A stretch of 64,000 nt of DNA from Candidatus Woesearchaeota archaeon (lineage in GTDB: Archaea; Nanobdellota; Nanobdellia; Pacearchaeales; GW2011-AR1), in NCBI GenBank assembly GCA_964344105.1, contig CAYFMD010000001.1, positions 4,671-68,670 on the forward strand, in the 5' to 3' direction. The translations under genes and the position numbers were made by a program. Below are positions 10,980 through 56,130 of this stretch, piece after piece (positions within the stretch are counted from its first letter, which is position 1; every line of letters begins with the position of its first letter). The notes below the pieces were generated by a model. It was not told the DNA's origin, did not search any database, and saw only the letters and a list, made by a program, of their open reading frames with translations.

Positions 10980-10990
10980 CTTATTAGATC

Positions 10991-37212: not shown

Positions 37213-37937
37213 CCAACGACAAATACAAAACTGTATGGAACCTCCTGCAATTCATTATCATAATCTGTTATTGTATAAATCAATCTACCATCCCCAATAG
37301 GAACAAAGGCAACATCATAATTCAAGCTAGTCAAATAGCTCAAATCAACAAACTCCGGATCAGAAACATGTTTACTCACAATATCTTCTGCAGCATCATG
37401 CATATTTCCTAGATTGATCTTCAACGTAACCTCATAACTATCCTCCATAGTAAAGGTCTCTATTTCTTTACTAGCACTAACAAAAACTAAATTATCTATA
37501 TCTACAAAATCATCCCTCACCTTAATATCAGCCTCTTCAATATCTAGGGTTATATCTAATCCAACAAATTCATCCTCCAAACAAAAAGGCATTGTAATTT
37601 CTAAGTATCTCGCAATTTCATCTTCCAATTCAGGAACACTAATTAATACATCCTCCCCATTCCTAACTCCATAAGCAATCCCATTATCCCCATCCCTATA
37701 GTGGTCTTCAGGCAAATTGACATATCCTCCCTGCAATCCTACCAACCTAGCCGCATCAATTGTCCTTTGATTAAAACATTCTCTTATTGCTCTATCGATA
37801 TCTCCAATCTCCTCAAAATTACCAGATCTAAAACTATCTCCAGACCTAAACAAAACCACTAAAATTACTCCTACTACCAAAACTATAGCTATGATTATTA
37901 TCAAGGCAACTTGTGCCCTTTTACCTCTATTTTGCAT
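37209..37937 (-). CDS. N-terminally TM-anchored acidic protein, co-transcribed with the giant protein
   Basis: The TM helix is VALIIIIAIVLVVGVILVVLF. It overlaps the downstream gene by 4 nt. Confidence 0.5.
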   Translation of the reverse strand: MQNRGKRAQVALIIIIAIVLVVGVILVVLFRSGDSFRSGNFEEIGDIDRAIRECFNQRTIDAARLVGLQGGYVNLPEDHYRDGDNGIAYGVRNGEDVLISVPELEDEIARYLEITMPFCLEDEFVGLDITLDIEEADIKVRDDFVDIDNLVFVSASKEIETFTMEDSYEVTLKINLGNMHDAAEDIVSKHVSDPEFVDLSYLTSLNYDVAFVPIGDGRLIYTITDYDNELQEVPYSFVFVVG

Positions 37938-38685: not shown

Positions 38686-39384
38686 TTAATAAAAATCACC
38701 AGAAACACAAACAAACCCATCAACACAACTCTTCTCGCCTTTCAGCTTCCAGCTCTGAACATTATGATCATGATCACTTACATGATGATACGGATTCCCA
38801 TCATGCCAAATATTATCATTGCTTCCTCCCAATGTAATAACCTCTCCGCCACAACTGTGCGAATGCTCTCTGTAATGATTATTTGTAACAACACCACATG
38901 GAGTCTTAACACTCTGCTTATGTCCACTATCATAACCAGCTCCAATCAACTTTATTGTAAACTTCTTATCATCAGAATGATACCTTGGCTCATAGCGCCT
39001 CTCATCTCTAATGTATCTAACCTTTCTAACTTCAGGCTCATGATCTCTAACATAAACTACCTTAGTTTTTGTCTTGTGTTTGTAAGGAACGTATTTCAAC
39101 CTAGCATCCTTGTAAGCCCTTTGATATCCAGGACCTGAATAAATATAATAATCATTTATTGGATTGTATTTCTTAACTCCTCCAAGTGTAATCACGTGCT
39201 TGCCATACTGATGTCCATGGTACCCCTTACCATAACTATTATGTCCATATGTGTAACCACAATCATGATAATATCCATCAAAGCCTCTACAAAGCGCAGC
39301 ATCAACAGCACTAACAGCTCCAACAACTAACACTATTCCAAAAAGAAACATCAATAATTTTTTGTTCATCATTTTTCTCATCAT
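38686..39384 (-). CDS. Secreted Tyr/His/Gly-rich protein
   Basis: The signal peptide is MMRKMMNKKLLMFLFGIVLVVGAVSA. It has repeated GYHG/YGH/YxY motifs and paired Cys residues. Confidence 0.5.
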   Translation of the reverse strand: MMRKMMNKKLLMFLFGIVLVVGAVSAVDAALCRGFDGYYHDCGYTYGHNSYGKGYHGHQYGKHVITLGGVKKYNPINDYYIYSGPGYQRAYKDARLKYVPYKHKTKTKVVYVRDHEPEVRKVRYIRDERRYEPRYHSDDKKFTIKLIGAGYDSGHKQSVKTPCGVVTNNHYREHSHSCGGEVITLGGSNDNIWHDGNPYHHVSDHDHNVQSWKLKGEKSCVDGFVCVSGDFY

Positions 39385-39409
39385 TTTAATTATTTAAAGA
39401 TTATTATAC

Positions 39410-39901
39410 TCACCTGTAAGACCATAGCACCAAATAATGCTCAGGCCTGCTCAATAGCCTAACACTATTCTCACTATGTTTATTATAGCTATAAGGACTG
39501 CTACTTTCGTAATGATTATTCTCTCTAACATAACTGTAATAAGGATAATATCTGTCAATCACATACTCTCTATCTTGGTATTTCTGACCACTATAACCTG
39601 GATAATAACTACTATACGATCTGTAACTGCTATCTCTGCTCCTATAAACCCAGCCATCGTCATATCTATCCTTGGAACTTACAGAAATCAAATTAGGTTG
39701 CCACCTATAATTAGGACGGCTATTACCATAACTATGCCTATAATCATAGCTATCATAATATTCATAACCGTAATTACCTCGGTAATGGCTACTATAATAA
39801 CTAGCACTAACAAATCCACTTCCAAGCAACAAAACCATCAAAAACATTCCAACAAATAATCCTAATCTTTTCATTTCCATCTTAACAATAACTAACTCCA
39901 C
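39410..39901 (-). CDS. Secreted Tyr/Ser-rich low-complexity protein
   Basis: The signal peptide is MKRLGLFVGMFLMVLLLGSGFVSA, and the mature part is about 30% Tyr with YYSS/YRSY repeats. Confidence 0.5.
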   Translation of the reverse strand: MELVIVKMEMKRLGLFVGMFLMVLLLGSGFVSASYYSSHYRGNYGYEYYDSYDYRHSYGNSRPNYRWQPNLISVSSKDRYDDGWVYRSRDSSYRSYSSYYPGYSGQKYQDREYVIDRYYPYYSYVRENNHYESSSPYSYNKHSENSVRLLSRPEHYLVLWSYR

Positions 39902-40418
39902 ATCCTCCTAAATATGTATAACCTGGAACAAAAGCATTTCCATAATTATTGTAACTGTAATAAGGCTGATATCTACTTATTCCTAATCCTCCACCATAAA
40001 AACCACCATAGCCTCCCCAACCTCCAAAGCCTCTATTCCAACCACCATAAGTCAAACCAGCAGTACCTACTCCGCTACTAAAATAAGGTCTATTAAAACT
40101 TTCAGGATAATCTACAAAAAAGAAGCTAGGTCTAACATCTCCAGCATCATACATTTGATATCTATAATTTCCATAACTTCCTTTAAAGATTGGAGTATTA
40201 GCATGTTGCTTGATTGGATATCTATAATTTCCCCTATAATCGTAATATCCACTACCATCATTAGAACTTTTGTAATAATAATTAGAACTACTAGAACCGT
40301 GTGGTCCTTGATATCTGTGATTGAACTCAGCAGTAGAATAGCCAGCACTAACAACACTAACACTAGCAAGCAAAAGAATCATTGCAACCACCATCACCCC
40401 AACCATTCTACTATTCAT
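39882..40418 (-). CDS. Secreted Tyr/Gly-rich low-complexity protein
   Basis: The signal peptide is MNSRMVGVMVVAMILLLASVSVVSA. It has a GGWGGYGGFYGGGLG tract and ends in a C-terminal CGVSYC. Confidence 0.5.
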   Translation of the reverse strand: MNSRMVGVMVVAMILLLASVSVVSAGYSTAEFNHRYQGPHGSSSSNYYYKSSNDGSGYYDYRGNYRYPIKQHANTPIFKGSYGNYRYQMYDAGDVRPSFFFVDYPESFNRPYFSSGVGTAGLTYGGWNRGFGGWGGYGGFYGGGLGISRYQPYYSYNNYGNAFVPGYTYLGGCGVSYC

Positions 40419-41551: not shown

Positions 41552-42013
41552 ATGGGCGATTATGAAAGACAAGTAGCAGAACTTCTTTTTGGAAATCCAA
41601 GGAGAACTGACCTATATGCAGATTTTAGAAGAGGAAGAGATGCACCTCACGACACAGCCCAAAGAGTTCTAGAAGCACTAGCACATCCAGAATTAGTCAG
41701 AGCAAACCTATCTCTAAAAAGGCAAATGGATATATCTAGTCCTAACGCAGTATATGCGGGAGACGAAGCATCATATGCAAGAGCAAATGGATCTGATTTC
41801 TCATTACTATTGTTTAGACCTGAATTAAGGGCGGACATTTACGAACCATTTGTAGGACTAACAGCGTCAGCAAATAGTTCCTATAGATTCCAAACAGGAT
41901 CTCAAGATTTCAGAATAGTTTTCAATAATCTGAGTGATGGTGATCAAACAACTGGGGGCAACATCCAGCACAGATCTATGCATGCAGTTAGATCAAATGT
42001 TAGAAGCAGATAA
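41552..42013 (+). CDS. Hypothetical protein with GC-shifted composition
   Basis: It is an ORF whose 3' end overlaps the convergent agmatinase gene by about 20 nt. Confidence 0.4.
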   Translation: MGDYERQVAELLFGNPRRTDLYADFRRGRDAPHDTAQRVLEALAHPELVRANLSLKRQMDISSPNAVYAGDEASYARANGSDFSLLLFRPELRADIYEPFVGLTASANSSYRFQTGSQDFRIVFNNLSDGDQTTGGNIQHRSMHAVRSNVRSR

Positions 42014-42748
42014 AATCTTCAGCAATTCTCCACCTGCCTTAACTGTCTCACCATCTTTATCTTTACTAGGATTAACCTCAACCAGATCCGATCTAACAAC
42101 TTTCCCACTTCTAAGAACATCCTTAACAAATTCCTTCAACTGATCCAAACTAAACCCTTCCTTCTCAGGATAACCTGTTCCAACATACTTCTCACCATCA
42201 AGCGCATCTATATCAACAGAAAGATAAACTTTCTCACAACCTTCTAAAAAATCTCTAATAACAGCTAGAATTCCTGTTCCATTATCTTCAGATAATGGAC
42301 TTGCCATCTCTTCTCCCCAATAATGATGCTTAATCCCCTTCTCCTTCAAATATTCTTTCTCAATAGGATCAACATTTCTCAACCCAACAATAAAAACATT
42401 CGAAGGATCAACATGACCTTCCTCAATCAACACTCTAACAAAATCCTCATGGGTTGGCGGACTAAAATTATTAACACAATCCGCATGTGCATCAAATATA
42501 ATCAAACTATCGCAACCACTACTTTTGAAAGTTCCATATGTAACTGAATGATCGCCCCCAACAAAAACATCTCCATCTAAACCTGCAATCATCTCAGTTG
42601 TCTCACCAAAGTCCGAATCAGAAACCTCAGCTACCTCAAACTCAACTCCAGCTTCCTCACAAACAGCCTTCCCGCCATCTTCACATCCAACATTCTTACC
42701 CAAACATCCTTGCGAAGAAGGAATTACAATAACTTTCTTATTTGCCAT
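41993..42748 (-). CDS. speB: Arginase/agmatinase-family ureohydrolase (probably agmatinase)
   Basis: It has the Mn-binding motifs GGDHSVTYG, DAHADC and SVDIDALD. Confidence 0.75.
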   Translation of the reverse strand: MANKKVIVIPSSQGCLGKNVGCEDGGKAVCEEAGVEFEVAEVSDSDFGETTEMIAGLDGDVFVGGDHSVTYGTFKSSGCDSLIIFDAHADCVNNFSPPTHEDFVRVLIEEGHVDPSNVFIVGLRNVDPIEKEYLKEKGIKHHYWGEEMASPLSEDNGTGILAVIRDFLEGCEKVYLSVDIDALDGEKYVGTGYPEKEGFSLDQLKEFVKDVLRSGKVVRSDLVEVNPSKDKDGETVKAGGELLKILSASNI

Positions 42749-42778: not shown

Positions 42779-43501
42779 CTAAGCAATAGGTTCTAATCTC
42801 CTTAGGCATCTTCCAGAAGGCTTATCACAATATTCATCTATCCCTCCAGGACTGCAATCATTATCAATTTTACAATATTCGCAATTTCCAGTTTCACCAC
42901 CTAGGGGGATATTACATATTAGTCCATCATAACAGTCTGCTCTAAATCTGCATCCTCTAATGCACGTGTAAATATTCTCATCACAAAAAACTCCTGAAAA
43001 ACAAAGGTGCTGATTATCGGGATCACAATTAAATAATTCCGTACAATCAATTCTCCCAGTACATTCCTTAGTCACGCATTTACCTTCATAACAAAATAAT
43101 TCAATATCTGAATTCAGACTATTACAATCATCATCTTCATTACAAATACAATCTGCCGGACACTCAAATATTCCCCCGATCTCCTCTCCAGGCCCGCATT
43201 TATTATCTCCACAGAAAGTATCACAATCTGCAGGGCAGGTGCTAATATCTTCATGAGGCTCGCAAATATCATTATAATTGCATTCAGATAAAGCTTCATT
43301 CTCAGTAGGATCTGCTAGTTCCGGTACAGCCGGTTCAGGTTCTGCAAGCGTAGGCATAACACCTTCCTGATTTAATCTACCCAATAAGCCCTCTAAATCA
43401 CTAGATTGGCTAGCTACAATTCCTAAAACAATGACTGCAACAAAAATGCCAATTACCCAATAATTAAGATTCTCTTTCTTTCTAGAATGTTTCTTCACCA
43501 C
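42779..43501 (-). CDS. Cys-rich N-terminally membrane-anchored secreted protein (paralogue family member 1)
   Basis: It has the TM helix YWVIGIFVAVIVLGIVA, then ...DLEGLLG..., then about 40 Cys in CxxC/CPADC modules. Confidence 0.55.
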   Translation of the reverse strand: MVKKHSRKKENLNYWVIGIFVAVIVLGIVASQSSDLEGLLGRLNQEGVMPTLAEPEPAVPELADPTENEALSECNYNDICEPHEDISTCPADCDTFCGDNKCGPGEEIGGIFECPADCICNEDDDCNSLNSDIELFCYEGKCVTKECTGRIDCTELFNCDPDNQHLCFSGVFCDENIYTCIRGCRFRADCYDGLICNIPLGGETGNCEYCKIDNDCSPGGIDEYCDKPSGRCLRRLEPIA

Positions 43502-43679
43502 TTTGCCTTAGAAGGGATTTCTTATATTTAAAACTAAGCAATAGCTCTATTTAGTATCGCAAGGCCTGGTAATCCCATAGATTGATAAACTCTCTTATCT
43601 GGAAGAAAAAAATGCCCTCCAGTTTTATCCTCGCCAATATTATCTCCATAATCTCCTTTTAGGTAAATCCACCCATCGC

Positions 43680-44711
43680 TCATGCCCCTTCCCAAATTAT
43701 CTCCAACTTCTCCAAACTACAAAAGTCAGTTGTATAATTATAAGCACCAGCATTTAAAAAAACAATCTCATCTCCCACCTTAACATCCCTCAATCTAACC
43801 TTATACCTAAATATATCATCTCTTGTAGGGGTATCCCCTTTAATTTTATAATCAGTACCTTCCTCAGAATCAGAAAGCTCTCCATCAACCAACAATCTAA
43901 TATCAGTTATATGCGCATCCAAAACCCCATTATAAACAGAAGTATTAACAATCAAAGTACCTTCTTGAATCTGAATAACATTACAAACTAACTTAACAGC
44001 AGGACCTGCAATAAACCTTCCTGGCTCACAATAAACCTCTCCATCAAACCACTCCTTAACTTCCTTAATCTTATCAAATATATAAGGCATTATCTCCGAA
44101 GTATAAGTTCTATATCTGATAGGCAATCCTCCACCAATATTAATTATATCCAATCTATCCAAACTCTCTTCACTCAAACTATCAACAAGCTCATCCTTAA
44201 TCTCCCATTCACTAGCATTCTGACTTTTTCTATGAATATGCACGCCTAGCCTACCCACACTTTCATTATCTTTAATATCTAATATTATCTCGTTTACCTT
44301 GTTTGCTGGAAGACCATAAATGAAATATTTCCCAGCAGTAATCCTATGCTCTTGAAATTTCATTCGCAGCAAGAGATCAATAACTACCCCCTTAGTTTTA
44401 GCAGCTACCAAAACCTTCTCTAAATCAATCTCATTATCAATAACAAACTTCCTAACACCTTTATCAATCAACTCACAGATCTCATCATCAGAATTTGCCT
44501 GCATAAAAAACCAGATCTTACCTTTATCATTAATCGAATCAACCTCTGCACCTGCATGTATCGAGAACTCACTATCAGTCATCTCCTCAAGAACATGCCC
44601 AACCTCATTATTTGTCTTATAACTATAGCTAACATTTATCCCCAGATCCTTTAACTGATTATATTGCTCAACAACTTTGCTCTTACTCAAGATAAACTTA
44701 GCCTTATTCAT
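43680..44711 (-). CDS. PLP-dependent fold-III decarboxylase (Orn/Arg/DAP decarboxylase family)
   Basis: It has the GGGLP and EPGRFIAGPA motifs characteristic of alanine-racemase-fold decarboxylases. Its neighbours are deoxyhypusine synthase and agmatinase. Confidence 0.65.
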   Translation of the reverse strand: MNKAKFILSKSKVVEQYNQLKDLGINVSYSYKTNNEVGHVLEEMTDSEFSIHAGAEVDSINDKGKIWFFMQANSDDEICELIDKGVRKFVIDNEIDLEKVLVAAKTKGVVIDLLLRMKFQEHRITAGKYFIYGLPANKVNEIILDIKDNESVGRLGVHIHRKSQNASEWEIKDELVDSLSEESLDRLDIINIGGGLPIRYRTYTSEIMPYIFDKIKEVKEWFDGEVYCEPGRFIAGPAVKLVCNVIQIQEGTLIVNTSVYNGVLDAHITDIRLLVDGELSDSEEGTDYKIKGDTPTRDDIFRYKVRLRDVKVGDEIVFLNAGAYNYTTDFCSLEKLEIIWEGA

Positions 44712-45648
44712 CTTTCAAAACTCCCATCTCCCTCAACTTTTCAATAGCCCTTATCATAACCAATGGATAAGTAATAGTAACATCTCCATTAACAGTAACT
44801 CCTGCAGCAGTATCTTTCAACTTTCCCCAACTCATAGCCTCCTTGGTTGTAGCACCACTCATACTTCCTGAACTTGAATGGCTAGTAGTAAGGTAAACTG
44901 CATAATCAAATCCTCCATTCAATAACCCACTAAAAACCGCATAGTGCTTTGAAATCGAACCACCTAAACTAATCAATCCCTTCTTCTCATCATGATTACT
45001 AGCAAATATAACATTCTTCACATCTCTAATAACATCAACAAAGAAATCCTTATTCTTTTCTTGGAACATATACAAATGAAATCCAATAGCCGAATCTGCA
45101 ATTCCCGGACAAAAAATAGGAACATTATTCTTAGCAGCCTGATACAAAATAGAATTCTCATCTTTTATCAAAAGTCCTAATTCATACAACAATGTACTAA
45201 CATCAATCCTCTTATGCCTCGAATAAATATCTTCCAAATATTCCTTCATCTTATCTTCAAATTTCATATAACTCTCATTTCTAATTAACAAATTACCAAT
45301 TCTATTTTCACCTTTCTCTCTCATAGCCAAATCATCAGCACCAAAATTACTAACCTCAATCCCATCTCCCATGGCCTTTATAATATCCTCCTCAATACTT
45401 GCACTAGTAGTCACAAGAACGTCAGCCATCTTCAACTTAACCATCTGAGCAAAGAACCCTCTCAAACCACTAGTAACCATATTCGATGTAAAAGTCAAAT
45501 AGATCTTAGCACCCTCTTGCTTCATCTTCATAACAACATCTGAAGCCTTATTCAACTCAATACTCTGATAACCTAAACTACCAAAATCATCGACCAATTC
45601 CCTAACGGTCATACCAGGTTTCCATAAAAAATCTTTAACAGTTTTCAT
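44704..45648 (-). CDS. dys: Deoxyhypusine synthase
   Basis: It has TSNMVTSGLRG, PIFCPGIADSAIG and LGGSISKH motifs, and the length is 314 aa. Confidence 0.8.
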   Translation of the reverse strand: MKTVKDFLWKPGMTVRELVDDFGSLGYQSIELNKASDVVMKMKQEGAKIYLTFTSNMVTSGLRGFFAQMVKLKMADVLVTTSASIEEDIIKAMGDGIEVSNFGADDLAMREKGENRIGNLLIRNESYMKFEDKMKEYLEDIYSRHKRIDVSTLLYELGLLIKDENSILYQAAKNNVPIFCPGIADSAIGFHLYMFQEKNKDFFVDVIRDVKNVIFASNHDEKKGLISLGGSISKHYAVFSGLLNGGFDYAVYLTTSHSSSGSMSGATTKEAMSWGKLKDTAAGVTVNGDVTITYPLVMIRAIEKLREMGVLKDE

Positions 45649-45806
45649 CTTACAAAGAATTTAGAAAAATAACACAATTACAATTAAGCCAAAGGTATTG
45701 CCTTGCTCTTTAACAATTGTAATGTTTTCATAATAAAAAAGATAATTTTTGGTTTAAAAACCTACCGATTAACAATATTTATATACGTAATTTAATTAAC
45801 ATCAAT

Positions 45807-46430
45807 ATGAAAAAGAGGAAAAAGAAAAACCAGAACAACTCTAACAGAAATTTATACATTGGAATAGCAGTAATAATCCTACTATTCATCTTCGCATTTT
45901 ACTATGGAGATTACAATCAAGTGAATGAAGAGGGACTAGCCAATTCTGGATTTGCATATGGTTTTTTGGAACTATTCGGACCAGAAGAAAATGAAGATCC
46001 TTTTGCAGGTCCAAGAACGCCTGGAACCTGTGACTTATCAAATAATAGAGATGATCCAATTTTAGGCGATGGAACTAACTCAGATTGTGATGGCCTATTT
46101 ATGGGGAAATATTGCGATCCCGAAACTCTAACTTGTACCGATTATTATGAAACAACTATCTACAGGTTAGATCCAGACTCACCAAATTTAGGAGTATTGT
46201 TCACCTGTACAGATACTGATACTGCAAACGATATTCATCTTAAGGGAGAATTAATAATAGATTACATTAACGATCCAAACGATGGAGATCCTATTTTTGA
46301 TAGATGCGAGAGCGCCAAGGTGATACAATATAAATGTTCCAATTCCCCTCCCTCTCATTATTTCATACTTGAACACACTTGTAAAACCGGGTGCAGAGAT
46401 GGTGCATGCATATCTGGATTTGGCGAATAA
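45807..46430 (+). CDS. Cys-rich N-terminally membrane-anchored secreted protein (paralogue family member 2)
   Basis: It has SNRNLYIGIAVIILLFIFAF, then EEGLANSGFAYGFLELFGP, then a Cys-rich domain. Confidence 0.55.
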   Translation: MKKRKKKNQNNSNRNLYIGIAVIILLFIFAFYYGDYNQVNEEGLANSGFAYGFLELFGPEENEDPFAGPRTPGTCDLSNNRDDPILGDGTNSDCDGLFMGKYCDPETLTCTDYYETTIYRLDPDSPNLGVLFTCTDTDTANDIHLKGELIIDYINDPNDGDPIFDRCESAKVIQYKCSNSPPSHYFILEHTCKTGCRDGACISGFGE

Positions 46431-46433
46431 GAA

Positions 46434-46709
46434 CTACTCATACTTCCTTCTCAACTTAGCAAAATCCCTTGCAACACTAATATAATCCTCTCTCTGGCCC
46501 ATATCTCCTTTAACTTCTGCAATAGCTGCTAAATTAGTATAGGCATCAGCCAAATATCCCCAAGCTCTTGATGATTCTTCTCCGCTTCTAGCGAATTCTA
46601 ATCTAGCCCTAGTCCTTAAAACAGCCACACCACCTTGCAAGGCTAAACCATCATCGGCGCACTCCATAGCCAATCTGCTAACTCTTCCATCAAAGCTAAA
46701 ATCTATCAT
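46434..46709 (-). CDS. Hypothetical small helical protein with GC-shifted composition
   Basis: It is an ORF that is A/R/L-rich. Confidence 0.4.
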   Translation of the reverse strand: MIDFSFDGRVSRLAMECADDGLALQGGVAVLRTRARLEFARSGEESSRAWGYLADAYTNLAAIAEVKGDMGQREDYISVARDFAKLRRKYE

Positions 46710-46782
46710 CTTATTGTAATATCAAGAACTCTCTTTCCCAAGGATAATTTTTCTTAAGAAAAATACTATAAAAATCTATCTA

Positions 46783-47247
46783 TCAACCTAAACCAACATT
46801 CTCTAGGGGTATCACTGGAGGATCTTTATATCTAGCAACAGTTTCGCAATAAAACTGAACTCCAACACCTGCATCAACAAGCCTTCTTGAGATCCTTTCA
46901 ACTGTGGGAGTAATTCTAGAAGCAGCGCCATAAAGAGTAACTTGATCTCCAGAACTACATTTCTTGTTATAATGAGTACCTACCCAGAATCCCTTACTAC
47001 GTTTCAAACCTCTAAATGGCCTCATAAATCTAGGTTTAGAAAATCTCTCACTAAAAAATGGAACCTCATAACTAACATGCCCAGAAACTTCTACACCATG
47101 AGTCTCCTTTCCAAAACCATATATGTAAGCTAGAAGTAAAAAATCAACACTACCTGGATTATCTGCCAAAACTCCATCAACAATCTCTGATTCACTAGGG
47201 GGTTTAGCAAAAAATAAAGAATCTAAATTCATCTTAAAATTATTCAT
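46783..47247 (-). CDS. Hypothetical protein co-transcribed with fusA
   Basis: Its start overlaps the fusA stop by 8 nt. Confidence 0.45.
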   Translation of the reverse strand: MNNFKMNLDSLFFAKPPSESEIVDGVLADNPGSVDFLLLAYIYGFGKETHGVEVSGHVSYEVPFFSERFSKPRFMRPFRGLKRSKGFWVGTHYNKKCSSGDQVTLYGAASRITPTVERISRRLVDAGVGVQFYCETVARYKDPPVIPLENVGLG

Positions 47248-49432
47248 TGTCAGCTAGACCCTTTCTCTGTCTAACTTTCTTAACAATCTCTTGCTGCAAC
47301 TGAGCAGGAACCTTCTCAAAGCTCTGATCAACCATACTAAATCCACCCTTACCTTCAGTAGCCGATCTAATATCTGAACTCAATCCAATCATCTCCGCAA
47401 CTGGCATCTTCGCCTTAACAGAAACTTGTCCTGAAGTTTGATCAATATCAATAACTTGTCCTCTCTTAGCACTAACTAGCTTAGTCAGCTCTCCCATATA
47501 ATCCAATGGAGCTTCTAACAACAAAGTCTGCAACGGCTCTAACAACGTTGGACCGGCAGTATCAATACTTCCTCTTACCGAATCTCTAATAGCTGGATAA
47601 ACCTGAGCAGGACCTCTGTGAATCGCGTCTTCGTGCAACTTCAAATCAACAAGACTAATCTTCAACTTAGCACATGGCTCTCTAGCCAAAGTACCAGCAT
47701 CAATAACTTGCTCAACACCATCCATTACCATTTCAATAACTTCACCGATGTGAACCTCTCCCTTAGTCTTATCTAAGAATACACAATCGTTGTAAATATC
47801 TCTATACTGTCTAGCTTCCTCATTGCTAACTCCACATTCATTCAACTTAGCCCAAAGCTCTTCATTCTTCTTCTTAGTTCTACCTTCTGGAATCTCCCCA
47901 GCCTTAATAGCATCATATACAGAATCCTCCAAAGGCTCAACTTCAATCCAGAACAAGTTGTGCTTGTTTGGCGACTTTCCTTCTCCAGTATTACCCTTCT
48001 TACTTACAGTCTCTCTGTAAACAACAATAGGATCTCCAGTCTTAACATCAACTCCCTTCTCTGTCTTAATTCTGTTCTCAATAATTTCCAAGTGCAACTC
48101 TCCCATACCTGAAATCAAGTTCTCACCAGTCTCCTCATTAATCTCAATATGCAATGAAGGATCTTCCTTAGCAACCTTCTTCAAAACCTCAATCAACTTA
48201 GGTAGATCTTGTGGCTTTGGAACACTAATAGATTTTGTAATAACTGGATCAAAGATGTGCTTAATATTTTCAAAAGCTTCTTGAGGAGAACTTGTAACTG
48301 TCTCTCCAGGCTGTGAAGTTAATCCTGTAATAGCTAAAACATTTCCAGCAGGAACTACCTCCAACTGTTCAGGCTTAACTCCGTTGTAAACTAAAACTTG
48401 CTGAATTCTCTGCTTCTTCTTATCTCCATTCAAATAAACCTCCATACCTGGCTTCAAAGTTCCTGAGAACAATCTACCAGCACTAACTTCCTTACCTGAT
48501 CTTGGATCAATAACAGTATTGGTAATAACGAAAGCAGGCTCTCCATTTGGATCACAACTCAATAACTGCTTACCGAAGTCGCTCTCTAAATCTCCTTGCC
48601 ATATCTTTGGAATTCTATATTTCTGAGCTTCAACAGGTGAAGGCAAGTGAGTAATTACCGAATCCAAAAGAACCTCAAACAATGGGGCATTCTCCCAGAA
48701 CCAATCCTTCTTAGCTTCCTTATCCTCTTTATTCTGATTCTCAATAACATCCTTAAATCCAACTCCCTTCTTCTGCATGAACTTAGCACTCAATGCCCAA
48801 TTCTCTCTAGCACTACCAAAAATAACTGACCCATCAGCAACACTAACCTTCCACTTCTGAGCATACTCTGGCTCAGCAATCTGCTCGATCAAAATATTAA
48901 AGTGATCAATAATCTTCATGAATCTTTCCTGCATAGCCTCTGGTGTAAGTTTCAACTCAGTAATCATTCTATCAACCTTATTAATAAACAAAATAGGCTT
49001 AACTCTTTCTCTCAAAGCTTGCTTCATAACAGTCTCAGTCTGTGGCATTATTCCCTCAATAGCACAAGCCAAAACAATTGTACCGTCAATAGCTCTCATA
49101 GCTCTAGTAACATTTCCACCAAAATCAACGTGACCTGGTGTATCAATTAAATTAACTAAGTATTCCTTACCCTCAAGCTCGTGAGCCATACTAACATTAG
49201 CCGCATCAACAGTCAATAATCTCTCCTGCTCGTCTGCGTGACCCCAAGTTGCCATTCCACCATCTAGATCTCCAGCCAACTTCTCATTCATCATACCAGC
49301 TGCAGCCAATAGATTATCAGTCAAAGCAGTCTTACCGTGGTGAATGTGCGCGCTTGTCGCTATGTTTCTTATTGTATCCTGACTTTTTACTAGTCTTACA
49401 ATCTTCTCAAAGGGCGTCTCTTTTGTTGCCAT
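47240..49432 (-). CDS. fusA: Translation elongation factor 2 (aEF-2)
   Basis: It has AHIHHGKT, DTPGH and NKVD motifs, and at 730 aa it aligns along its length to archaeal EF-2. Confidence 0.9.
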   Translation of the reverse strand: MATKETPFEKIVRLVKSQDTIRNIATSAHIHHGKTALTDNLLAAAGMMNEKLAGDLDGGMATWGHADEQERLLTVDAANVSMAHELEGKEYLVNLIDTPGHVDFGGNVTRAMRAIDGTIVLACAIEGIMPQTETVMKQALRERVKPILFINKVDRMITELKLTPEAMQERFMKIIDHFNILIEQIAEPEYAQKWKVSVADGSVIFGSARENWALSAKFMQKKGVGFKDVIENQNKEDKEAKKDWFWENAPLFEVLLDSVITHLPSPVEAQKYRIPKIWQGDLESDFGKQLLSCDPNGEPAFVITNTVIDPRSGKEVSAGRLFSGTLKPGMEVYLNGDKKKQRIQQVLVYNGVKPEQLEVVPAGNVLAITGLTSQPGETVTSSPQEAFENIKHIFDPVITKSISVPKPQDLPKLIEVLKKVAKEDPSLHIEINEETGENLISGMGELHLEIIENRIKTEKGVDVKTGDPIVVYRETVSKKGNTGEGKSPNKHNLFWIEVEPLEDSVYDAIKAGEIPEGRTKKKNEELWAKLNECGVSNEEARQYRDIYNDCVFLDKTKGEVHIGEVIEMVMDGVEQVIDAGTLAREPCAKLKISLVDLKLHEDAIHRGPAQVYPAIRDSVRGSIDTAGPTLLEPLQTLLLEAPLDYMGELTKLVSAKRGQVIDIDQTSGQVSVKAKMPVAEMIGLSSDIRSATEGKGGFSMVDQSFEKVPAQLQQEIVKKVRQRKGLADNE

Positions 49433-49446
49433 GTTGTATATCTCTG

Positions 49447-49478
49447 ATATATAACAGTCTGAAATCTTTGATTTCAGA
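49447..49478 (-). promoter_or_regulatory. fusA promoter: a TATA-like TTATATAT about 20 nt upstream of the ATG, plus a perfect 9-bp inverted repeat TCTGAAATC-TTT-GATTTCAGA just upstream of it
   Basis: I saw this in the sequence. The IR position, just upstream of BRE/TATA, is typical for archaeal regulator binding sites. Confidence 0.45.
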
Positions 49479-49655
49479 ATCTCAAAAACCTACCAATCAA
49501 ACCCGAAGGGTTTCGCTGGTTTTTGAGGTCTGTTATTATAGTTTATTCATGCAAAATTCGCTTTTTAAATCTTCCTAATGATAAAAGCAAACATTTAAAT
49601 ACTACTATTTGTCACTATTATTAAATAATAACACTACAAGGAGGTTATAAAAAGA

Positions 49656-49946
49656 ATGAAAAGAAAGGAAAGAATAAGTAGAGAGCATGCAGCTATCCTA
49701 GATAGTGCTGAAGGTTCAGCTTTAGTTAGAGCTATTGCAGATAGAGATTCAACAGAATTTACTATAAATGTAACAGAATATGCTCCAAGAATGGCTGAGA
49801 ATAGAGCTGTTGGACAGTTTGCTACAGCTTTCAACGCTGCTTACACTGGTCAAGCATATATAGACGCTCCAACAACTAGCGCACTATTATCTGCAGGTCA
49901 CAGTTCACCATCTTACAGAAGAGTTAGAAAAGCTTCTGTAGCTTAA
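49656..49946 (+). CDS. Hypothetical small protein preceded by a strong SD (AGGAGGT)
   Basis: GGAGGT lies 7-8 nt upstream of the ATG. The composition is GC-shifted and A/T/S-rich. Confidence 0.45.
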   Translation: MKRKERISREHAAILDSAEGSALVRAIADRDSTEFTINVTEYAPRMAENRAVGQFATAFNAAYTGQAYIDAPTTSALLSAGHSSPSYRRVRKASVA

Positions 49947-50019
49947 ATTTTTATTTTTTTATTTTCTTTAACTTCTTTGAAGTTTAAGAGGCAGAAATTT
50001 TTAATTTCTGTAATATTTT

Positions 50020-50196
50020 TAATTGAATATTTTTTCAACCCAAGTGAGAACTCTCCCAATCATGCTATCTTCACTTATATTGCCTAAAAGGATATTACTA
50101 CCTTCTCCACCAAATCCAAAAACCAACCCATAAATTATAGACAAAACCACTAAAACTATCAATACAATTAAAGTCCAATACAACCACTTTTTCATA
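50020..50196 (-). CDS. Candidate small membrane protein (~58 aa, MKKWLYWTLIVLIVLVVLSIIYGLVFGFGGEG...)
   Basis: I translated this from the minus strand by hand. It falls below the track's length cut-off, and the coordinates are approximate to within 2 nt. Confidence 0.3.
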
Positions 50197-50252
50197 ATTC
50201 TAACAATAAAAAAATCTATATAAAATTATCCACCAATTTTTATATAGTTCTC

Positions 50253-50666
50253 TTGCTTCAAACAATTATGCTAGTAGACAAAAAAGATGTACATAGGGGC
50301 CTAACAGAATTAATAACAAGTTTATTACAGTGGACTGATCCTGATGGCCATCACATATTTGAGATAAATGGATTCGATCCAACAGTAAAAAGGTATGGGA
50401 TATTCAAAGCTGATCCTAGTAAGCCAGAAACAATGGGATGCAGAACATACACCGTAACTTACCTATATCATACAGAAGATGGAGCAAATAGATATGTTGG
50501 AGATAGGGACACTTTCAATACACATTGTGTAATAGCAGATCTTTACAGAGGAATGACTGAACAGAATTGTGCTATCAATTGGAGGTTAGCTTTGAAAGGC
50601 AGACCTGGAGCTGAAGCAGGATATGACTTATTAGAAACCGCACTAACTGTAAAAGCAAAACCCTAA
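50253..50666 (+). CDS. Hypothetical protein
   Basis: It is an ORF with a probable start at MLVDKKD. Confidence 0.4.
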   Translation: MLQTIMLVDKKDVHRGLTELITSLLQWTDPDGHHIFEINGFDPTVKRYGIFKADPSKPETMGCRTYTVTYLYHTEDGANRYVGDRDTFNTHCVIADLYRGMTEQNCAINWRLALKGRPGAEAGYDLLETALTVKAKP

Positions 50667-50706
50667 CACTAAATTTATATATCTAAAATATCTAGTAAAA
50701 TAAAAG

Positions 50707-51384
50707 ATGGTGAAAGATTTATTTTCAAACAGAAACCTATTAATAATTTTCATAATAGTTGTAGCAGCAATAATAATCTTCACAGCTGGAACTTCAACTG
50801 ATGAAGAAGGCCTAGCACAATCAGGAGTTGACTTTGCAGCACTATTGGGTTTTGTTGGAGATCCTGGAACTCCTAGTCTAGAAGATTTAGCCGGAATTTG
50901 TCAAACTGATGATGATTGTAAGAGTCCAAACAAACCTACTTGCAGCGCTTCAGGATTATGTGAGAAAGGTTGCCAAGATGATGCCCAATGTAATAAATTC
51001 TTTGATATTGGTAAGAGCATTTGTGACCCAGATGGATCATGTCAAGTATGTAAGAACGATGATGGTAACGATGTAAGTATTACTCCAGACACTGGATGCC
51101 CTGCAACGGCCCCAGTTTGTAGCTCAGAACATCAATCATTCAGACAAAAGAGAAGTACAGGTAAGGAGAGCTTATGTGTAGAATGCAATTCAGAAGGATT
51201 CATTGCTTCAGACACTCTAGACAAATCTCCTACAAATAGCCATTGCATAAATAACCCTCTATCTGATGGAGATATATGCCACTTCTACAGATGTGTAGAG
51301 TGTGTATTAAACGGAGACTGCGGAGATGGCTTCCAATACATTTGCAATCAAAATAGATGTGAAAGAAATCCTGCAGTTGTTTAA
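50707..51384 (+). CDS. Cys-rich N-terminally membrane-anchored secreted protein (paralogue family member 3)
   Basis: It has SNRNLLIIFIIVVAAIIIFTAG, then DEEGLAQSGVDFAALLGFVGDPG, then a Cys-rich domain. Confidence 0.55.
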   Translation: MVKDLFSNRNLLIIFIIVVAAIIIFTAGTSTDEEGLAQSGVDFAALLGFVGDPGTPSLEDLAGICQTDDDCKSPNKPTCSASGLCEKGCQDDAQCNKFFDIGKSICDPDGSCQVCKNDDGNDVSITPDTGCPATAPVCSSEHQSFRQKRSTGKESLCVECNSEGFIASDTLDKSPTNSHCINNPLSDGDICHFYRCVECVLNGDCGDGFQYICNQNRCERNPAVV

Positions 51385-51396
51385 AGATTATTAAAA

Positions 51397-52107
51397 TTAT
51401 CTAGCTGAATCAGCTTGCTTCTCACTATCTCTCTTCTTAGACATAGCAGAACTATCCATATCCTTATTGTAAGCCTTCATTATCTCAGCAGACAATGCTT
51501 GCTCAATACTAGTCTTTTTATTAAAACTCTTATCATAAGAACCTTGAACCATATGTCTCAAAGTCATTGTAACTCTTCTCAATGGACTGATATCAACAGC
51601 TTGAGGATATCTCGCACCACCATACTCAATTACTGTAACTCCATCCATCGGAGCTGAATTCTCCAAAGCAGTTACCAAAACTTGAACAGGATTCATCTTC
51701 ATCTTATCCTCAATAATCTTCAAAGTCTCAACAACTATCTTCATATTCTGACTATACTTACCTGTCTTCCATCCAGTTTGAATCTTGTGCTTCTTTCCTC
51801 TATGTCCAGGAACTGCAACTAGGTTAGCAAAAATCTCCAAAAGATTAATCTTAGACTTTCCAAACTTCTCTCTAACTCTACCATGACTCTTAACCATCAA
51901 CTTAGGCTCTAGATTAAAATATCTCTTCATACCAGGGTCAACAATCTTAATATCACTAACATCCCAAAGACCAAACAATTTAAAATTATTTTTATCTTTT
52001 TCAATTTCTGCCATATGGTCAATTACTTCGTCTTCCATGTGACCTGCATCATCTTCAGATGATGTACCTGCTGTCCCTTCTTCCATTTGTACTTCTTGTT
52101 CTGCCAT
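51397..52107 (-). CDS. rps7: Ribosomal protein uS7 with an acidic N-terminal extension
   Basis: It has FGLWD...VDPG(M)KRY and NPVQVLVTALENSAPMDGVTVIEYGGARYPQAVDISPLRRV segments, and ends in SAR. Confidence 0.85.
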   Translation of the reverse strand: MAEQEVQMEEGTAGTSSEDDAGHMEDEVIDHMAEIEKDKNNFKLFGLWDVSDIKIVDPGMKRYFNLEPKLMVKSHGRVREKFGKSKINLLEIFANLVAVPGHRGKKHKIQTGWKTGKYSQNMKIVVETLKIIEDKMKMNPVQVLVTALENSAPMDGVTVIEYGGARYPQAVDISPLRRVTMTLRHMVQGSYDKSFNKKTSIEQALSAEIMKAYNKDMDSSAMSKKRDSEKQADSAR

Positions 52108-52108
52108 C

Positions 52109-52462
52109 TTAAAATCCTAAAATACTATCTAGATGATCCTGACTAAGATCTATGCTCTCAGCACCTGCAGCTATCTTAAAAGTTTCATTTAATTGATTTA
52201 GATCACGAATAACATTTTCCCTAACATTAGGGTCTAGATTTGGATCTCTTACTGCACTACCAATTTGAGATAGTTTTCCCAGAATATTTGCAGTATTTCT
52301 AGCAGATTCTTCAGCAACATAACTAGCCATATCTCCACCAATATAATCAGAACTTTCCGCATCAGCCAAATTAAATGCATGAGGTCTCAAAACCATTTTA
52401 TTTCCATCAGAATCTCTAATTAAATCATAATTATTCATTTTATTCAATAGCCTCCCTAACAA
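52109..52462 (-). CDS. Hypothetical protein F, one of the genes inserted between rps12 and rps7
   Basis: It is an ORF with GC-shifted composition. It overlaps gene E by 23 nt. Confidence 0.4.
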   Translation of the reverse strand: MLGRLLNKMNNYDLIRDSDGNKMVLRPHAFNLADAESSDYIGGDMASYVAEESARNTANILGKLSQIGSAVRDPNLDPNVRENVIRDLNQLNETFKIAAGAESIDLSQDHLDSILGF

Positions 52463-52820
52463 TTTCTTCTAAGATATTACGAGCATCAGCAATCCTATTG
52501 CCTTCTTCACCATTAACTTCATATCCTATCTTTGCTTTTTCTGATCCATATGTAATACTAACACCAACTCCTTCAACTAAAAATGCTCCAACATACCCTT
52601 GGGCGCCATTAGTTTCCATGATTACCTTAATAGAATCATTACTATGATTAATGGCAGCACATCTAATAGGGTTTAAAATATGTCTTGCAAATGCTCCTCT
52701 AACATCTGAAAATTCATCCGCAGTACTATTTCCAGATTTATAAGCAGAAACAACACCTCCATAGTCAAAATCCGAAAAGGATAAATTTCCATATATTTCA
52801 TTACTTTGTTCTGTTTCCAT
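52440..52820 (-). CDS. Hypothetical protein E, inserted between rps12 and rps7. It has weak Roadblock/LC7-like features.
   Basis: The GAFLVEGVGVSITYG pattern supports the call, but the similarity is weak. Confidence 0.35.
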   Translation of the reverse strand: METEQSNEIYGNLSFSDFDYGGVVSAYKSGNSTADEFSDVRGAFARHILNPIRCAAINHSNDSIKVIMETNGAQGYVGAFLVEGVGVSITYGSEKAKIGYEVNGEEGNRIADARNILEEIVREAIE

Positions 52821-52821
52821 T

Positions 52822-53265
52822 TTAATTATCCCTCTCTGAATGATACTCGGTTAAATATCTTCCAATTTTATCTATAGCCTCAAATCTTTTTAATTCATCT
52901 CTATTAGTAATATCAATAGAACATGTATTCATCGGTCTATGATCCAAAAGAACATGGCAATCATCCAATTGGTATCCTACATATCTTCTCTCAGGATTTA
53001 CTAAATCTGGAAGATGTAATGTTCGAATAAGCCCGAAAAATTCTGCATATAGTTTAGAGCTACCTCTAAAAAGAGGTTCCATTATTAAATTATGGAAAGC
53101 ATTACTTGATGTTTCATCTATTAAACAACTGGTATTTCCAGAAGAACTATGGTTACTGGTGTATGAACGTAACAAACCCTCGCCAAGAGCATCAATAAAA
53201 GCAAATCTAGCGTCAATGCTACCAACATGGGGGTCTCTTGTCAAAATTACACTTCCACTAGACAT
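52822..53265 (-). CDS. Hypothetical protein D, inserted between rps12 and rps7
   Basis: The track ORF (to 53322) overlaps rps12, so I set the start at the internal Met MSSGSVIL at 53265, 2 nt from the rps12 stop. Confidence 0.4.
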   Translation of the reverse strand: MSSGSVILTRDPHVGSIDARFAFIDALGEGLLRSYTSNHSSSGNTSCLIDETSSNAFHNLIMEPLFRGSSKLYAEFFGLIRTLHLPDLVNPERRYVGYQLDDCHVLLDHRPMNTCSIDITNRDELKRFEAIDKIGRYLTEYHSERDN

Positions 53266-53266
53266 C

Positions 53267-53689
53267 CTATCTCCTTCCCTTCTCGATCTTACCAGTCCAC
53301 AATCTAGACAACGGCTGATCATTTACTTTTGTAACTTTCCATCTAACACCAGGAATATCTCCCTTAGATCTTCCCTGCTTACCACCAATTCTCTCAATCA
53401 TAACTTCATCGTGCTCATCAATAAACTTCTGAGCCAAATTTCCAGGAATAAACGCTGTAACAACCTTAGAATTCTTAATCAACTGAACCTTGCAACACTT
53501 TCTCATAGCAGAGTTTGGCTGCTTCGCTTCCTTTTGAACCTTCTCCGTAACAATTCCCTTAGCCTGGTTCTTACCACCTAAAGGATCCGATTTCTTAAAC
53601 AAATCAAGAGTCTTCACTTTATACTTACGATCTCTCCATCGAAATTTCCTTCGATTCTTCAATAGTTTTGTTGCATTTCTTAGTCCCAT
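53267..53689 (-). CDS. rps12: Ribosomal protein uS12
   Basis: It has [22 protein letters not shown] and ...[10 protein letters not shown] segments, and the length is 140 aa. Confidence 0.85.
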
Positions 53690-55548: not shown

Positions 55549-56130
55549 TTATGAACCAGAATTTAAATTACAATTCTCAGTATAAAAGTCGCACTTAAAT
55601 TGTTCTAGCTCATTAAGACTTCCACCAGCAGAATCTAAAGTACATTGAATACTATTTTCACAATACCTGCCATTCAAATCATTGGCACTACCAAAAACCC
55701 TATTATCATTATAATTATCAAAATCTGCTTCAAATCCTATCACTCCCTCAAAAACTGGAACCACTGCAATCTTAGAAAGATCCACAGTATTAACATCATC
55801 GTGAGTGAAACCAAACATGCCGACATCTAAATCTCCTAAACCGTCTGGATCTCTATCAACTATATGTGTCTCCCCTTCCTCATTATAAAAAACAAACTTC
55901 AACACATCTATATGTCTAGCTCCTTTCTCAACTCTAAGCAAAACAAAACTCGCATCTGCATCAAGATCAGCCTGAAAAATATTTATCCCAGTGCTATATC
56001 TGTCAACACTAACCTCATCTACAGCACCTCTAATAAACAAATTCACAACATTATACAAAATAATTATGGTTGCCAATATTATCAATATAATTAATACAAC
56101 AACAATAATTCTCGCTTGCCCCTTTTTCAT
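55549..56130 (-). CDS. Type IV pilin-like protein (class III signal peptide), occupying the usual L30e slot
   Basis: The N-terminus is MKKG|QARIIVVVLIILIILATIIILYNVV. Confidence 0.5.
   Translation of the reverse strand: MKKGQARIIVVVLIILIILATIIILYNVVNLFIRGAVDEVSVDRYSTGINIFQADLDADASFVLLRVEKGARHIDVLKFVFYNEEGETHIVDRDPDGLGDLDVGMFGFTHDDVNTVDLSKIAVVPVFEGVIGFEADFDNYNDNRVFGSANDLNGRYCENSIQCTLDSAGGSLNELEQFKCDFYTENCNLNSGS

Follow-up and report, generated by a model that had tools for sequence, protein, structure and literature searches.

A conserved N-terminal module joined to variable, mostly cysteine-rich domains in a probable surface-protein family of marine Pacearchaeota

Three genes around the EF-2 gene

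Here, we describe three genes, named A, B and C, that lie close to the gene of the elongation factor EF-2 on a 64,000-nucleotide (nt) stretch of archaeal DNA (positions 4,671 to 68,670 of contig CAYFMD010000001.1, assembly GCA_964344105.1), referred to throughout as the window. The source organism, deposited as a Candidatus Woesearchaeota archaeon, is taken to be a marine DPANN archaeon of the Pacearchaeota: its EF-2 protein shares a 90%-identity cluster with a protein that NCBI lists as EF-2 of "Candidatus Pacearchaeota archaeon", and relatives of the three products stem from marine metagenomes. An initial annotation of the window had described the three products as Cys-rich, membrane-anchored paralogues with a shared N-terminal module, and the core of this description, a conserved N-terminal module followed by a Cys-rich and presumably extracellular domain, holds well beyond the window. 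The coordinates and strands given there for the three open reading frames (ORFs) are exact, and independent gene calls on public contigs with identical DNA concur. The features of the three genes are as follows (aa, amino acids).

42779..43501, minus strand: gene A, 240 aa, 26 Cys, GTG start giving MVKKHSRKK; divergent (A-type) member
43358..43501, minus strand: A-type module, residues 1-48 (basic tail, ENLNYW, hydrophobic helix, LEGLLGRLNQEGV)
43409-43459, minus strand: predicted helix of A, residues 15-31
42782..43282, minus strand: predicted ectodomain of A, residues 74-240, 26 Cys; C..C(D/E)..E.....CP.DC motif present twice, followed by Cys repeats
43525..43532, minus strand: TATA-like box TTTAAATA, 24-31 nt upstream of the A start
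45807..46430, plus strand: gene B, 207 aa, 10 Cys
45807..45980, plus strand: B module, residues 1-58 (MKKRKKK tail, SNRNL, helix, EEGLANSG, aromatic patch FAYGFLELFG)
45852-45905, plus strand: predicted helix of B, residues 16-33
46029..46427, plus strand: predicted ectodomain of B, residues 75-207, 10 Cys, CTDTD...KG...C motif type; beta-rich according to a low-confidence prediction
45778..45785, plus strand: TATA-like box TTTATATA, 22-29 nt upstream of the B start
50707..51384, plus strand: gene C, 225 aa, 20 Cys
50707..50865, plus strand: C module, residues 1-53 (MVKDLF, SNRNL, helix, EEGLAQSG, patch FAALLGFVGDPG)
50737-50787, plus strand: predicted helix of C, residues 11-27
50899..51381, plus strand: predicted ectodomain of C, residues 65-225, 20 Cys, C-x-x-C / D-x-D-C type repeats
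50674..50681, plus strand: TATA-like box TTTATATA, 26-33 nt upstream of the C start

In B and C, the motif SNRNL immediately precedes the predicted helix and EEGLA(N/Q)SG follows 7-11 residues after it, as had been described, whereas A deviates from this architecture with ENLNYW...LEGLLGRLNQEG. Other parts of the description have to be narrowed. The N-terminal tail is basic in A and B but hardly so in C (MVKDLFS); a content of 20-40 Cys applies to A (26) and C (20), but B has only 10; and the proposed motif L(E/G)LFG(P/D)PG dissolves into a degenerate aromatic/hydrophobic patch followed by acidic residues. In A, a Pro/Glu-rich linker (residues 49-73) precedes the ectodomain. None of the three proteins matched a model in Pfam, NCBIfam or PHROGs, and a search of the PDB sequences with A gave no match.

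Each of the three genes is preceded by its own TATA-like box 22-33 nt before the start, and octamers of the form TTTAWATA occur only 21 times in the window, both strands included. This suggests that A, B and C are each probably an own transcription unit with a very short leader, even in the case of A, which is located inside the decarboxylase-arginase gene pair.

The similarity of the N-termini

In order to separate sequence similarity from composition, the segments before, within and after the transmembrane (TM) helix were shuffled separately, each keeping its own composition, and the modules were compared by Smith-Waterman alignment in 5000 trials. The B and C modules score 63, against 30.8 ± 6.4 for the shuffled sequences, and this score was reached in none of the 5000 trials; with the flanks alone, the observed scores were reached in 5 (pre-TM) and 22 (post-TM) of the 5000. 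The similarity of B and C therefore exceeds the contribution of TM-helix composition, which the initial annotation had named as the point on which its proposal could fail, whereas the pairwise similarity of A to B (641/5000) or to C (213/5000) is not significant. Pairwise BLASTP among the three proteins is weak (E between 0.006 and 3), B and C being 47% identical over 19 aa (E = 0.022), and A and B do not match each other.

A word-based search of 5.8 billion clustered proteins returned only A and C themselves when these were used as queries, and two relatives of B, of which P0003 is 32% identical to B overall and has the same N-terminus, and P0004 combines an N-terminus as in B with a different Cys-rich domain. 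The family is visible only through an exhaustive profile search. When a profile of 65 positions, built from five N-termini, was scored against all 1.84 billion representative proteins, 51 matches were obtained at E <= 1e-3, 49 of which are situated at residues 1 to ~55 of the target, the other two being translated tandem repeats. The initial annotation had proposed to build a hidden Markov model (HMM) of the module and to search for further copies, and such copies are indeed present in other sequences. The family members derive from marine metagenomes, one of them a Tara Oceans 0.1-0.22 µm sample, and C is 31% identical over 140 aa to the Tara Oceans protein P0033.

An independent HMM, made from 45 members from elsewhere and without A, B and C, was scored on 232 ORFs of the window plus P0027, an A-like protein (233 sequences in all). 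It gave 67.1 bits for B, 30.2 bits for C and 26 bits for P0027. A, with 12.4 bits (E = 1.4e-3 among the 233), is the best ORF of the window after B and C, the next one scoring 8.8 bits, and on the HMM alone it is borderline. We include A in the family because it bridges to two other members. The first is P0027, whose module is 47% identical to that of A over 38 aa (E = 5e-10) and shares with it the variant ENLNY...LEGLL, while its C-terminus is unrelated and Cys-free. The second is P0020, which is 27% identical to A over its full length (244 aa, E = 4e-7) and is an undisputed member: it scores 47.7 bits with the profile that includes A and 66.4 bits with an HMM lacking A and P0027, although P0020 itself is part of that HMM. 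We therefore regard B and C as clear members of the family and A as a divergent subtype.

Besides A, B and C, no further module copies were found in the window plus ~15 kb of extra flank. At the DNA level, patterns of the module match B or C once in the window, where 0 matches are expected. A first pattern (MVK...NRN...[DE][DE]GL) gave 50 listed matches in species-representative genomes, all of them bacterial, out of frame and unrecognised by the HMM, and the source genome of the window was not among these 50; it should be noted that this pattern covers only 6 of the 49 known members, its first gap being too narrow, and so says little on the distribution of the family. A second pattern gave 14 stretches on 14 contigs of the JGI metagenomes, and six of these contigs carry seven true family genes, two of them on contig L063. 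The module pattern was absent from the viral contigs of IMG/VR, and the orphan ORFs neighbouring A, B and C have no match in PHROGs, as is the case for the three proteins themselves; neither result points to phage or virus proteins. A description of the module was not found in the literature on cysteine-rich or surface proteins of Pacearchaeota and DPANN archaea.

Anatomy of the module

The conserved columns of the module were counted over 33 non-redundant sequences. The module starts with M-V-K-K-K, continues as a Lys/Ser/Asn-rich tail of 4-20 residues, and reaches the motif [F/S]-N-R-N, in which the R and the second N are each present in 31 of the 33 modules. This motif is followed by [LI]-[LIV]-I-G (I 27/33, G 27/33), by some 16 further hydrophobic positions, among which an F and [FY]-N are conserved, and then by a G and 2-6 polar residues, the hydrophobic helix being ~20 residues long. 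A second motif, [D/E]-E-G-L-[G/A] (G 29/33, L 32/33), comes after the helix, and membership of the family was judged, among other features, by [F/S]-N-R-N directly before the helix and [D/E]-E-G-L-[G/A] 4-10 residues after it. Some members encoded in a tandem array are without EEGLG, and the core of the module therefore consists of the basic tail, [N/R]RN and the helix.

In many members, EEGL is followed by a short aromatic/hydrophobic patch, which is a loose form of the LELFG/LLGFVGDPG motif of the initial annotation, and then by an acidic or Pro-rich stretch. The charges on the two sides of the helix are distributed asymmetrically: the N-terminal tail is Lys-rich, and the 50 residues after GL contain on average 10.6 D/E versus 3.1 K/R. 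The module is free of Cys: in no member does a Cys occur before residue 47, and the first one of A, B and C falls within residues 65-75. An AlphaFold2 model of C, made from a 14-row alignment (mean predicted local distance difference test, pLDDT, of 57), contains a helix at residues 8-28 with a pLDDT of 80-92, and residues 31-67 are disordered. No RNA structure was detected in the mRNA of the module; the z-scores are +1.65, +1.52, -0.70 and -0.16, and RNA structure does not explain the conservation of the module DNA described below.

The ectodomains

The module is fused to C-termini that are mutually unrelated, most of which are Cys-rich, with up to 56 Cys, and some of which are Cys-free (P0027, P0028 and P0029). 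As to the term paralogous, used in the initial annotation, homology of all three proteins is demonstrable in the module only; of the ectodomains, those of A and C share a Cys-repeat type (E = 0.006), and that of B is of a different kind. The number of Cys is even in 34 of the 35 members that have at least 4 of them, including A (26), B (10) and C (20), for which the binomial chance is ~1e-9, though the sequences are not fully independent. This argues that all the cysteines are paired in disulfides, and hence for an extracytoplasmic location of these domains.

The ectodomain of C matches the Cys repeat TIGR04201 (Myxo_Cys_RPT) with 15.9 bits (E = 0.011), below the cut-off of 25, and 3 of 14 family members weakly match the TraA model NF033759, the best with E = 3.5e-4, also below the curated cut-off. 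The structures of the Cys-rich domains, whose prediction had been suggested, were modelled for C and B, at a confidence too low to assign a fold. In the model of C, small knots at residues 90-130 and 200-225 reach a pLDDT of only ~80, and the model of B (3 rows) has a mean pLDDT of 46, with no assignable fold.

A polymorphic toxin system is not supported, as Pfam and NCBIfam models revealed no toxin domain in A, B, C or 14 other family members. The small neighbouring ORFs, which would be the candidates for immunity genes, have no library matches.

Replacement of ectodomains at chromosomal slots

The genes A, B and C sit in slots of an otherwise conserved backbone, whose order is arginase-family gene, A, decarboxylase-family gene, deoxyhypusine synthase (DHS) gene, B, two orphan ORFs, EF-2 gene, two orphan ORFs, C and the gene of ribosomal protein S7. 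The principal features of this backbone are listed here.

41993-42748: arginase-family gene (PF00491, E = 2e-37)
43680-44711: gene of the pyridoxal-phosphate-dependent ornithine/arginine decarboxylase family
44704-45648: DHS gene (PF01916, E = 1e-91)
47240-49432: EF-2 gene
49433..51396: strain-specific insert between EF-2 and S7, consisting of C and the orphan ORFs 49656-49946 and 50253-50666; absent in the related locus L005

As the initial annotation stated, A is inserted between the arginase-family (agmatinase) and decarboxylase-family genes, downstream of DHS, and B and C stand on opposite sides of EF-2, flanking the fusA region. Its word "dispersed" stands for three genes in slots that all fall within 8.6 kb. 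GC content and GC3 around A, B and C are unremarkable, so that no compositional islands were seen there.

The locus L005 belongs to a close relative, with identities to the window of 95.8% for EF-2, 95.4% for DHS and 98% for S7. The L005 counterpart of B, the gene of P0003, encodes a protein that is only 32-34% identical to B overall, while the module is 81% identical. The module DNA of B is ~85% identical to that of L005, and this conservation spans the promoter and the module and then breaks down in the rest of the gene. The slot of C is empty in L005, where 39 nt separate EF-2 from S7 although the two proteins have 96-98% identity with their counterparts in the window; a target-site duplication is not evident at the insert. 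The stretch between B and EF-2 is likewise not kept in L005. It includes, directly 3' of B, an orphan ORF of 91 aa (46434-46709, minus strand) with a sub-threshold HEPN match (PF18726, E = 0.036).

In a second locus, L058, synteny with the window extends over 17 kb, and the proteins are 33-94% identical (65-94% in the case of annotated housekeeping genes). Its slot of A is occupied, on the other strand, by a gene for an unrelated Cys-rich secreted protein. This gene (L058 1798-2970, minus strand), between the decarboxylase and arginase-family genes, encodes 390 aa with an internal duplication of ~80 residues (VKEQVKCVFENSNE...KSSCGGY...). A functional tie of A to the hypusine/polyamine genes was rejected: A has its own TATA-like box, the same slot in L058 holds this unrelated gene in the opposite orientation, and, since the slots hold different surface-protein genes in syntenic relatives, the place of A beside the hypusine genes does not imply a functional link.

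Next to FmrO, L058 has two adjacent family genes in the place where the window encodes a secreted protein of 1522 aa. The DNA of these two paralogues is ~96% identical from the ATG to the GLG codons, where the identity stops. The same slot can be compared between L058 and the locus L077, in which the flank is 85%, the promoter plus module (179 nt) 94.4% and FmrO 94% identical; the ectodomains have no similarity to each other, although the module is the same. An abrupt boundary was also observed for the P0012-type module on five contigs, where the module DNA is 97-100% identical and is then followed by unrelated or diverged sequence.

Tandem organisation of family genes was observed at the locus L081, which matches the window in GC content and stems from the sequencing project that also yielded the window. 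Four family genes form a tight array there (L081 4879-10259; 199, 462, 291 and 448 aa, with 26-56 Cys). A gene for a Y1 transposase of the IS200/IS605 type is located ~0.7 kb upstream of the array, and a single ORF of 172 aa separates the two. Genes of the array that are not neighbours share N-terminal tails in a mosaic pattern, and three of the four genes are without EEGLG.

The gene string S12-S7-EF-2 is normally compact. In the window, it is broken by orphan ORFs (49433-53322), three of them between S12 and S7 (52109-53322) and two, together with C, between S7 and EF-2, and several short hairpins are present in the spacers. No paralogy was detected among the orphan ORFs of the window at E <= 1e-3.

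A putative signal-anchor with exchangeable ectodomains

In our view, A, B and C are probably members of a lineage-specific surface-protein family of marine Pacearchaeota, in which an N-terminal targeting and anchoring module is combined with interchangeable, mostly disulfide-rich ectodomains. The module would most likely be an uncleaved type II signal-anchor. In this scheme, the Lys-rich tail would stay in the cytoplasm, and the ~20-residue helix, flanked by [F/S]NRN on its inner and by [D/E]EEGL[G/A] on its outer side, would insert with the N-terminus in and the C-terminus out, an orientation that agrees with a basic tail before the helix and an acidic stretch after it. The ectodomain would be kept off the membrane by the acidic or Pro-rich linker, and the ectodomain cysteines, nearly always even in number, would form disulfides outside the cell.

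Evolution or replacement of the ectodomains would be extremely rapid, as one would anticipate in proteins that make contact with hosts, viruses or particles, and the module may remain constant for two reasons, namely, because export and anchoring require it and because its near-identical DNA could serve as a recombination arm. Homologous recombination or gene conversion would then join the module to new ectodomain cassettes at fixed chromosomal slots. This view of rapid ectodomain change fits the finding that anchored surface proteins are among the fastest to diversify in Nanoarchaeota, in which N-terminally anchored hypothetical surface proteins have an excess of non-synonymous single-nucleotide polymorphisms (SNPs) (Jarett et al. 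2018, PMC6142677).

Several points weigh against parts of this interpretation. The hydrophobic stretch ends in small residues (G in 22 of the 33 modules, preceded by G/A/T/S). In A (IVAS↓Q) and C (FTAG↓T) this end would be compatible with cleavage by signal peptidase, and the proteins could thus be released instead of anchored. The strong conservation of NRN and EEGLG exceeds what a plain anchor needs, which the model does not explain and which hints at a partner protein. In addition, the DNA sequences of A, B and C do not resemble one another, the near-identical module DNA of other members could reflect very recent duplication and not ongoing recombination, and the differences between strains may be due to gene replacement by transfer and not to exchange in place. 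Finally, the structure predictions are of low confidence (pLDDT of 57 for C and 46 for B) and show no adhesin-like fold.

Among the alternatives, the one that survives best, although we judge it unlikely, is that the module is a cleavable Sec signal peptide with a short conserved pro-region, from which soluble disulfide-rich factors would be released, for example toxins, peptides with antimicrobial or host-manipulating action, or proteins of a matrix. Small Cys-rich secreted proteins are a common form of effectors, and the small residues closing the hydrophobic stretch (column 48 is G in 22/33, column 47 is G/A/T/S in 30/33) would suit a cleavage site, A and C satisfying the -3/-1 rule by inspection. 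The length of the helix does not decide the matter: canonical signal peptides encoded in the window also have hydrophobic regions of up to ~21 residues, and helix length alone is therefore no proof of an anchor. However, with the conserved G as candidate -1 residue, position -3 is mostly aromatic (F 14/33, Y 4/33), and an aromatic residue at -3 is unfavourable for type I signal peptidases; by inspection, A and C would fit the type I pattern, but B and the consensus would not. Moreover, signal peptides are normally poorly conserved, whereas here the helix and both of its flanks are the best-conserved part of the protein, and the acidic/Pro-rich linker right after the helix resembles a stalk.

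It is improbable, in our view, that the module is a dedicated sorting signal at which a membrane enzyme cuts or transfers the protein (EEGL↓G), for instance an intramembrane protease such as the presenilin homologue (PSH) encoded in the window. The tripartite build of the module, with a basic tail, a helix and a short invariant motif in a predicted disordered region, and its conservation beyond the need for membrane insertion would both agree with such a signal, and a divergent protease of the presenilin family is indeed encoded at 16795-17733; nevertheless, no candidate enzyme is linked to the family genes in any locus seen, presenilin homologues are widespread in archaea and so not specific to the family, and some members, such as three of the four in the L081 array, are without EEGLG. 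The protein encoded at 16795-17733 (minus strand) is a polytopic membrane protein with YD, GGGD and PAM motifs that matches NF041679 over nearly the whole profile (E = 7e-12), far below the curated cut-off, and has no Pfam match, which makes it a divergent PSH. It is a conceivable processing enzyme for single-pass anchors, with nothing linking PSH to the family.

A related and rather improbable idea combines both aspects. The module would be an N-terminal sorting or processing signal, the mirror image of archaeosortase-type signals, cut by a membrane enzyme at EEGL↓G, and its DNA would be the fixed arm of a cassette exchange that swaps disulfide-rich receptor heads at set slots. If true, this would amount to a polymorphic host-recognition system of ultra-small symbiotic archaea.

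Still less credible is a class III signal peptide of the type IV pilin kind, in which a prepilin peptidase would cleave after NRN and before the helix; the family would then consist of pilin-like subunits with variable heads. As in class III signals, a conserved motif separates the basic tail from the hydrophobic helix. Pilins typically combine a constant N-terminus with a C-terminus that varies and contains disulfides, and their alleles are replaced at one fixed locus; other proteins of the window carry pilin-like leaders. These leaders (1708-2109, plus strand; 37209-37937, minus strand; 55549-56130, minus strand) read KKG↓FIRIIEAI, KRA↓QVALII and KKG↓QARII, respectively. Their sites, KKG↓Q, KRA↓Q and KKG↓F, are canonical, whereas the -1 residue of the module is Asn in 31 of the 33 sequences instead of Gly or Ala, so that the FlaFind-type pattern [KRDE][GA][ALIFQMVED][ILMVTAS]x3 does not apply. 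Besides, no pilin or archaellin N-terminal model of Pfam or NCBIfam matched at E <= 1, and the helix is followed by a disordered acidic linker and not by a continued pilin alpha-1 helix.

The notion that there is no family, the similarity being a by-product of a TM helix and Lys-rich composition in an AT-rich genome, can practically be set aside, and is refuted for B and C: weak BLASTP among the three proteins and the non-significance of A on its own speak for it, but the shuffling of B and C (0/5000), the HMM scores (67 bits for B, 30 bits for C), the 49 N-terminal matches in 1.84 billion proteins and the DNA patterns that match B or C against an expectation of 0 all speak against it.

Two other types of signal were rejected. 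The proteins do not resemble archaeosortase or sortase substrates such as those with PGF-CTERM or LPXTG signals, as A, B and C end in ...RRLEPIA, ...ISGFGE and ...RNPAVV, respectively, with no hydrophobic C-terminal segment and no NCBIfam sorting-signal match. A lipoprotein signal is contradicted by the absence of a lipobox Cys at the end of the signal, the module being Cys-free.

Relation to known systems

No matching model (Pfam, NCBIfam, PHROGs) or paper was found for the module family, but its general kind, a conserved N-terminal signal on variable surface proteins, is known. The module resembles the YSIRK-G/S signal peptides of Gram-positive surface proteins (PF04650) and, more loosely, the extended signal peptide region (ESPR) of autotransporters and KxYKxGKxW signal peptides. 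All of them have a lineage-specific conserved motif where the basic tail of an N-terminal export signal meets its hydrophobic core, and all are found on a subset of surface proteins that are otherwise unrelated. The layout of the YSIRK motif, YSIRKxxxG, also has an R and then a G five positions later, as in FNRNLLIG here, which is a resemblance only. Unlike those signals, the module is archaeal, does not match their models, has a second motif (EEGLG) after the helix and no clear signal-peptidase site, would probably be an uncleaved anchor, and may act as a recombining DNA unit. With class III pilin-like signals it shares the order of basic tail, motif and ~20-residue helix, the conserved N-terminus with variable C-termini, and allele replacement at a fixed locus; it differs from them in the Asn at -1, in the acidic disordered linker after the helix, and in that other proteins of the same genome have canonical class III leaders.

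Near-identical N-terminal coding DNA, including synonymous sites, in front of unrelated C-termini is also known from the variable lipoproteins of Mycoplasma, from Neisseria pilE/pilS and from the C-terminal cassettes of polymorphic toxins, and tandem paralogues and the replacement of cassettes between close strains are common to these systems and the present family. In contrast to them, the module is without a lipobox or Cys, and no toxin or immunity domains are matched; no silent cassettes, invertible promoters or site-specific recombinase were seen beside the family genes. The Cys spacing in the ectodomain of C and several other members is similar to that of the Myxococcus TraA/TIGR04201 repeats, TraA being a polymorphic cell-surface recognition receptor. 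The scores are, however, below the cut-offs, there is no PA14-like domain or MYXO-CTERM, the putative anchor is N-terminal instead of a C-terminal sorting signal, and the ectodomain of B is of another type. What is new here is that the module is archaeal, carries motifs on both sides of the helix, has neither a lipobox nor a pilin-type site, and seems to act as a recombining unit of DNA.

A life in attachment to other cells is assumed for DPANN archaea such as Pacearchaeota. To our knowledge, the proteins that make this contact are almost unknown, and most DPANN surface proteins are orphans that cannot be grouped. The HMM of the module (~52 positions) is a simple means of listing, from these genomes and from marine metagenomes, proteins that are candidates for the cell surface and for interaction with hosts. 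The module may also point to a lineage-specific route of export or anchoring, whose conserved motifs call for a partner. Furthermore, the replacement of ectodomains can be aligned between strains whose housekeeping proteins are 85-98% identical, which suits population-genomic tests of recombination and diversifying selection. The nearest precedent is that of the "hypothetical external" proteins of Nanoarchaeota (PMC6142677), which are likewise DPANN proteins with a single N-terminal helix, a presumed outside domain and faster diversification than the genome; that study differs in giving SNP densities in terrestrial Nanoarchaeota, with no shared module, Cys-rich domains or cassette replacement.

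Other genes in the window

The gene of the origin-associated protein OapC (10991-11467; PF09845, E = 1e-22) and, just upstream, a weak OapB-like gene (region 10344-11467) suggest that a replication origin may be nearby; a quick repeat search of 10000-10700 gave no obvious origin repeats. The window encodes several large or unusual surface proteins other than those with the module. A protein of 1374 aa with 59 Cys (2145-6269, plus strand) has a PKD domain and, close to the N-terminus, the MopE-like motif CDGIDNDCDG, and is directly followed by a PKD-domain protein of 899 aa (6266-8965, plus strand); neither is related to the module family, and their signal peptides are of the ordinary kind. The 1522-aa secreted protein mentioned above (32644-37212, minus strand), which occupies the FmrO-side slot that holds two family genes in L058, has zero Cys and no Pfam match. 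Three tandem genes for small secreted proteins rich in Gly, Tyr, Asn and His (38686-40418, minus strand) keep their order in L058, with 33-51% identity, and the protein encoded at 39882-40418 and its L058 counterpart both end in short Cys pairs, e.g., GGCGVSYC.

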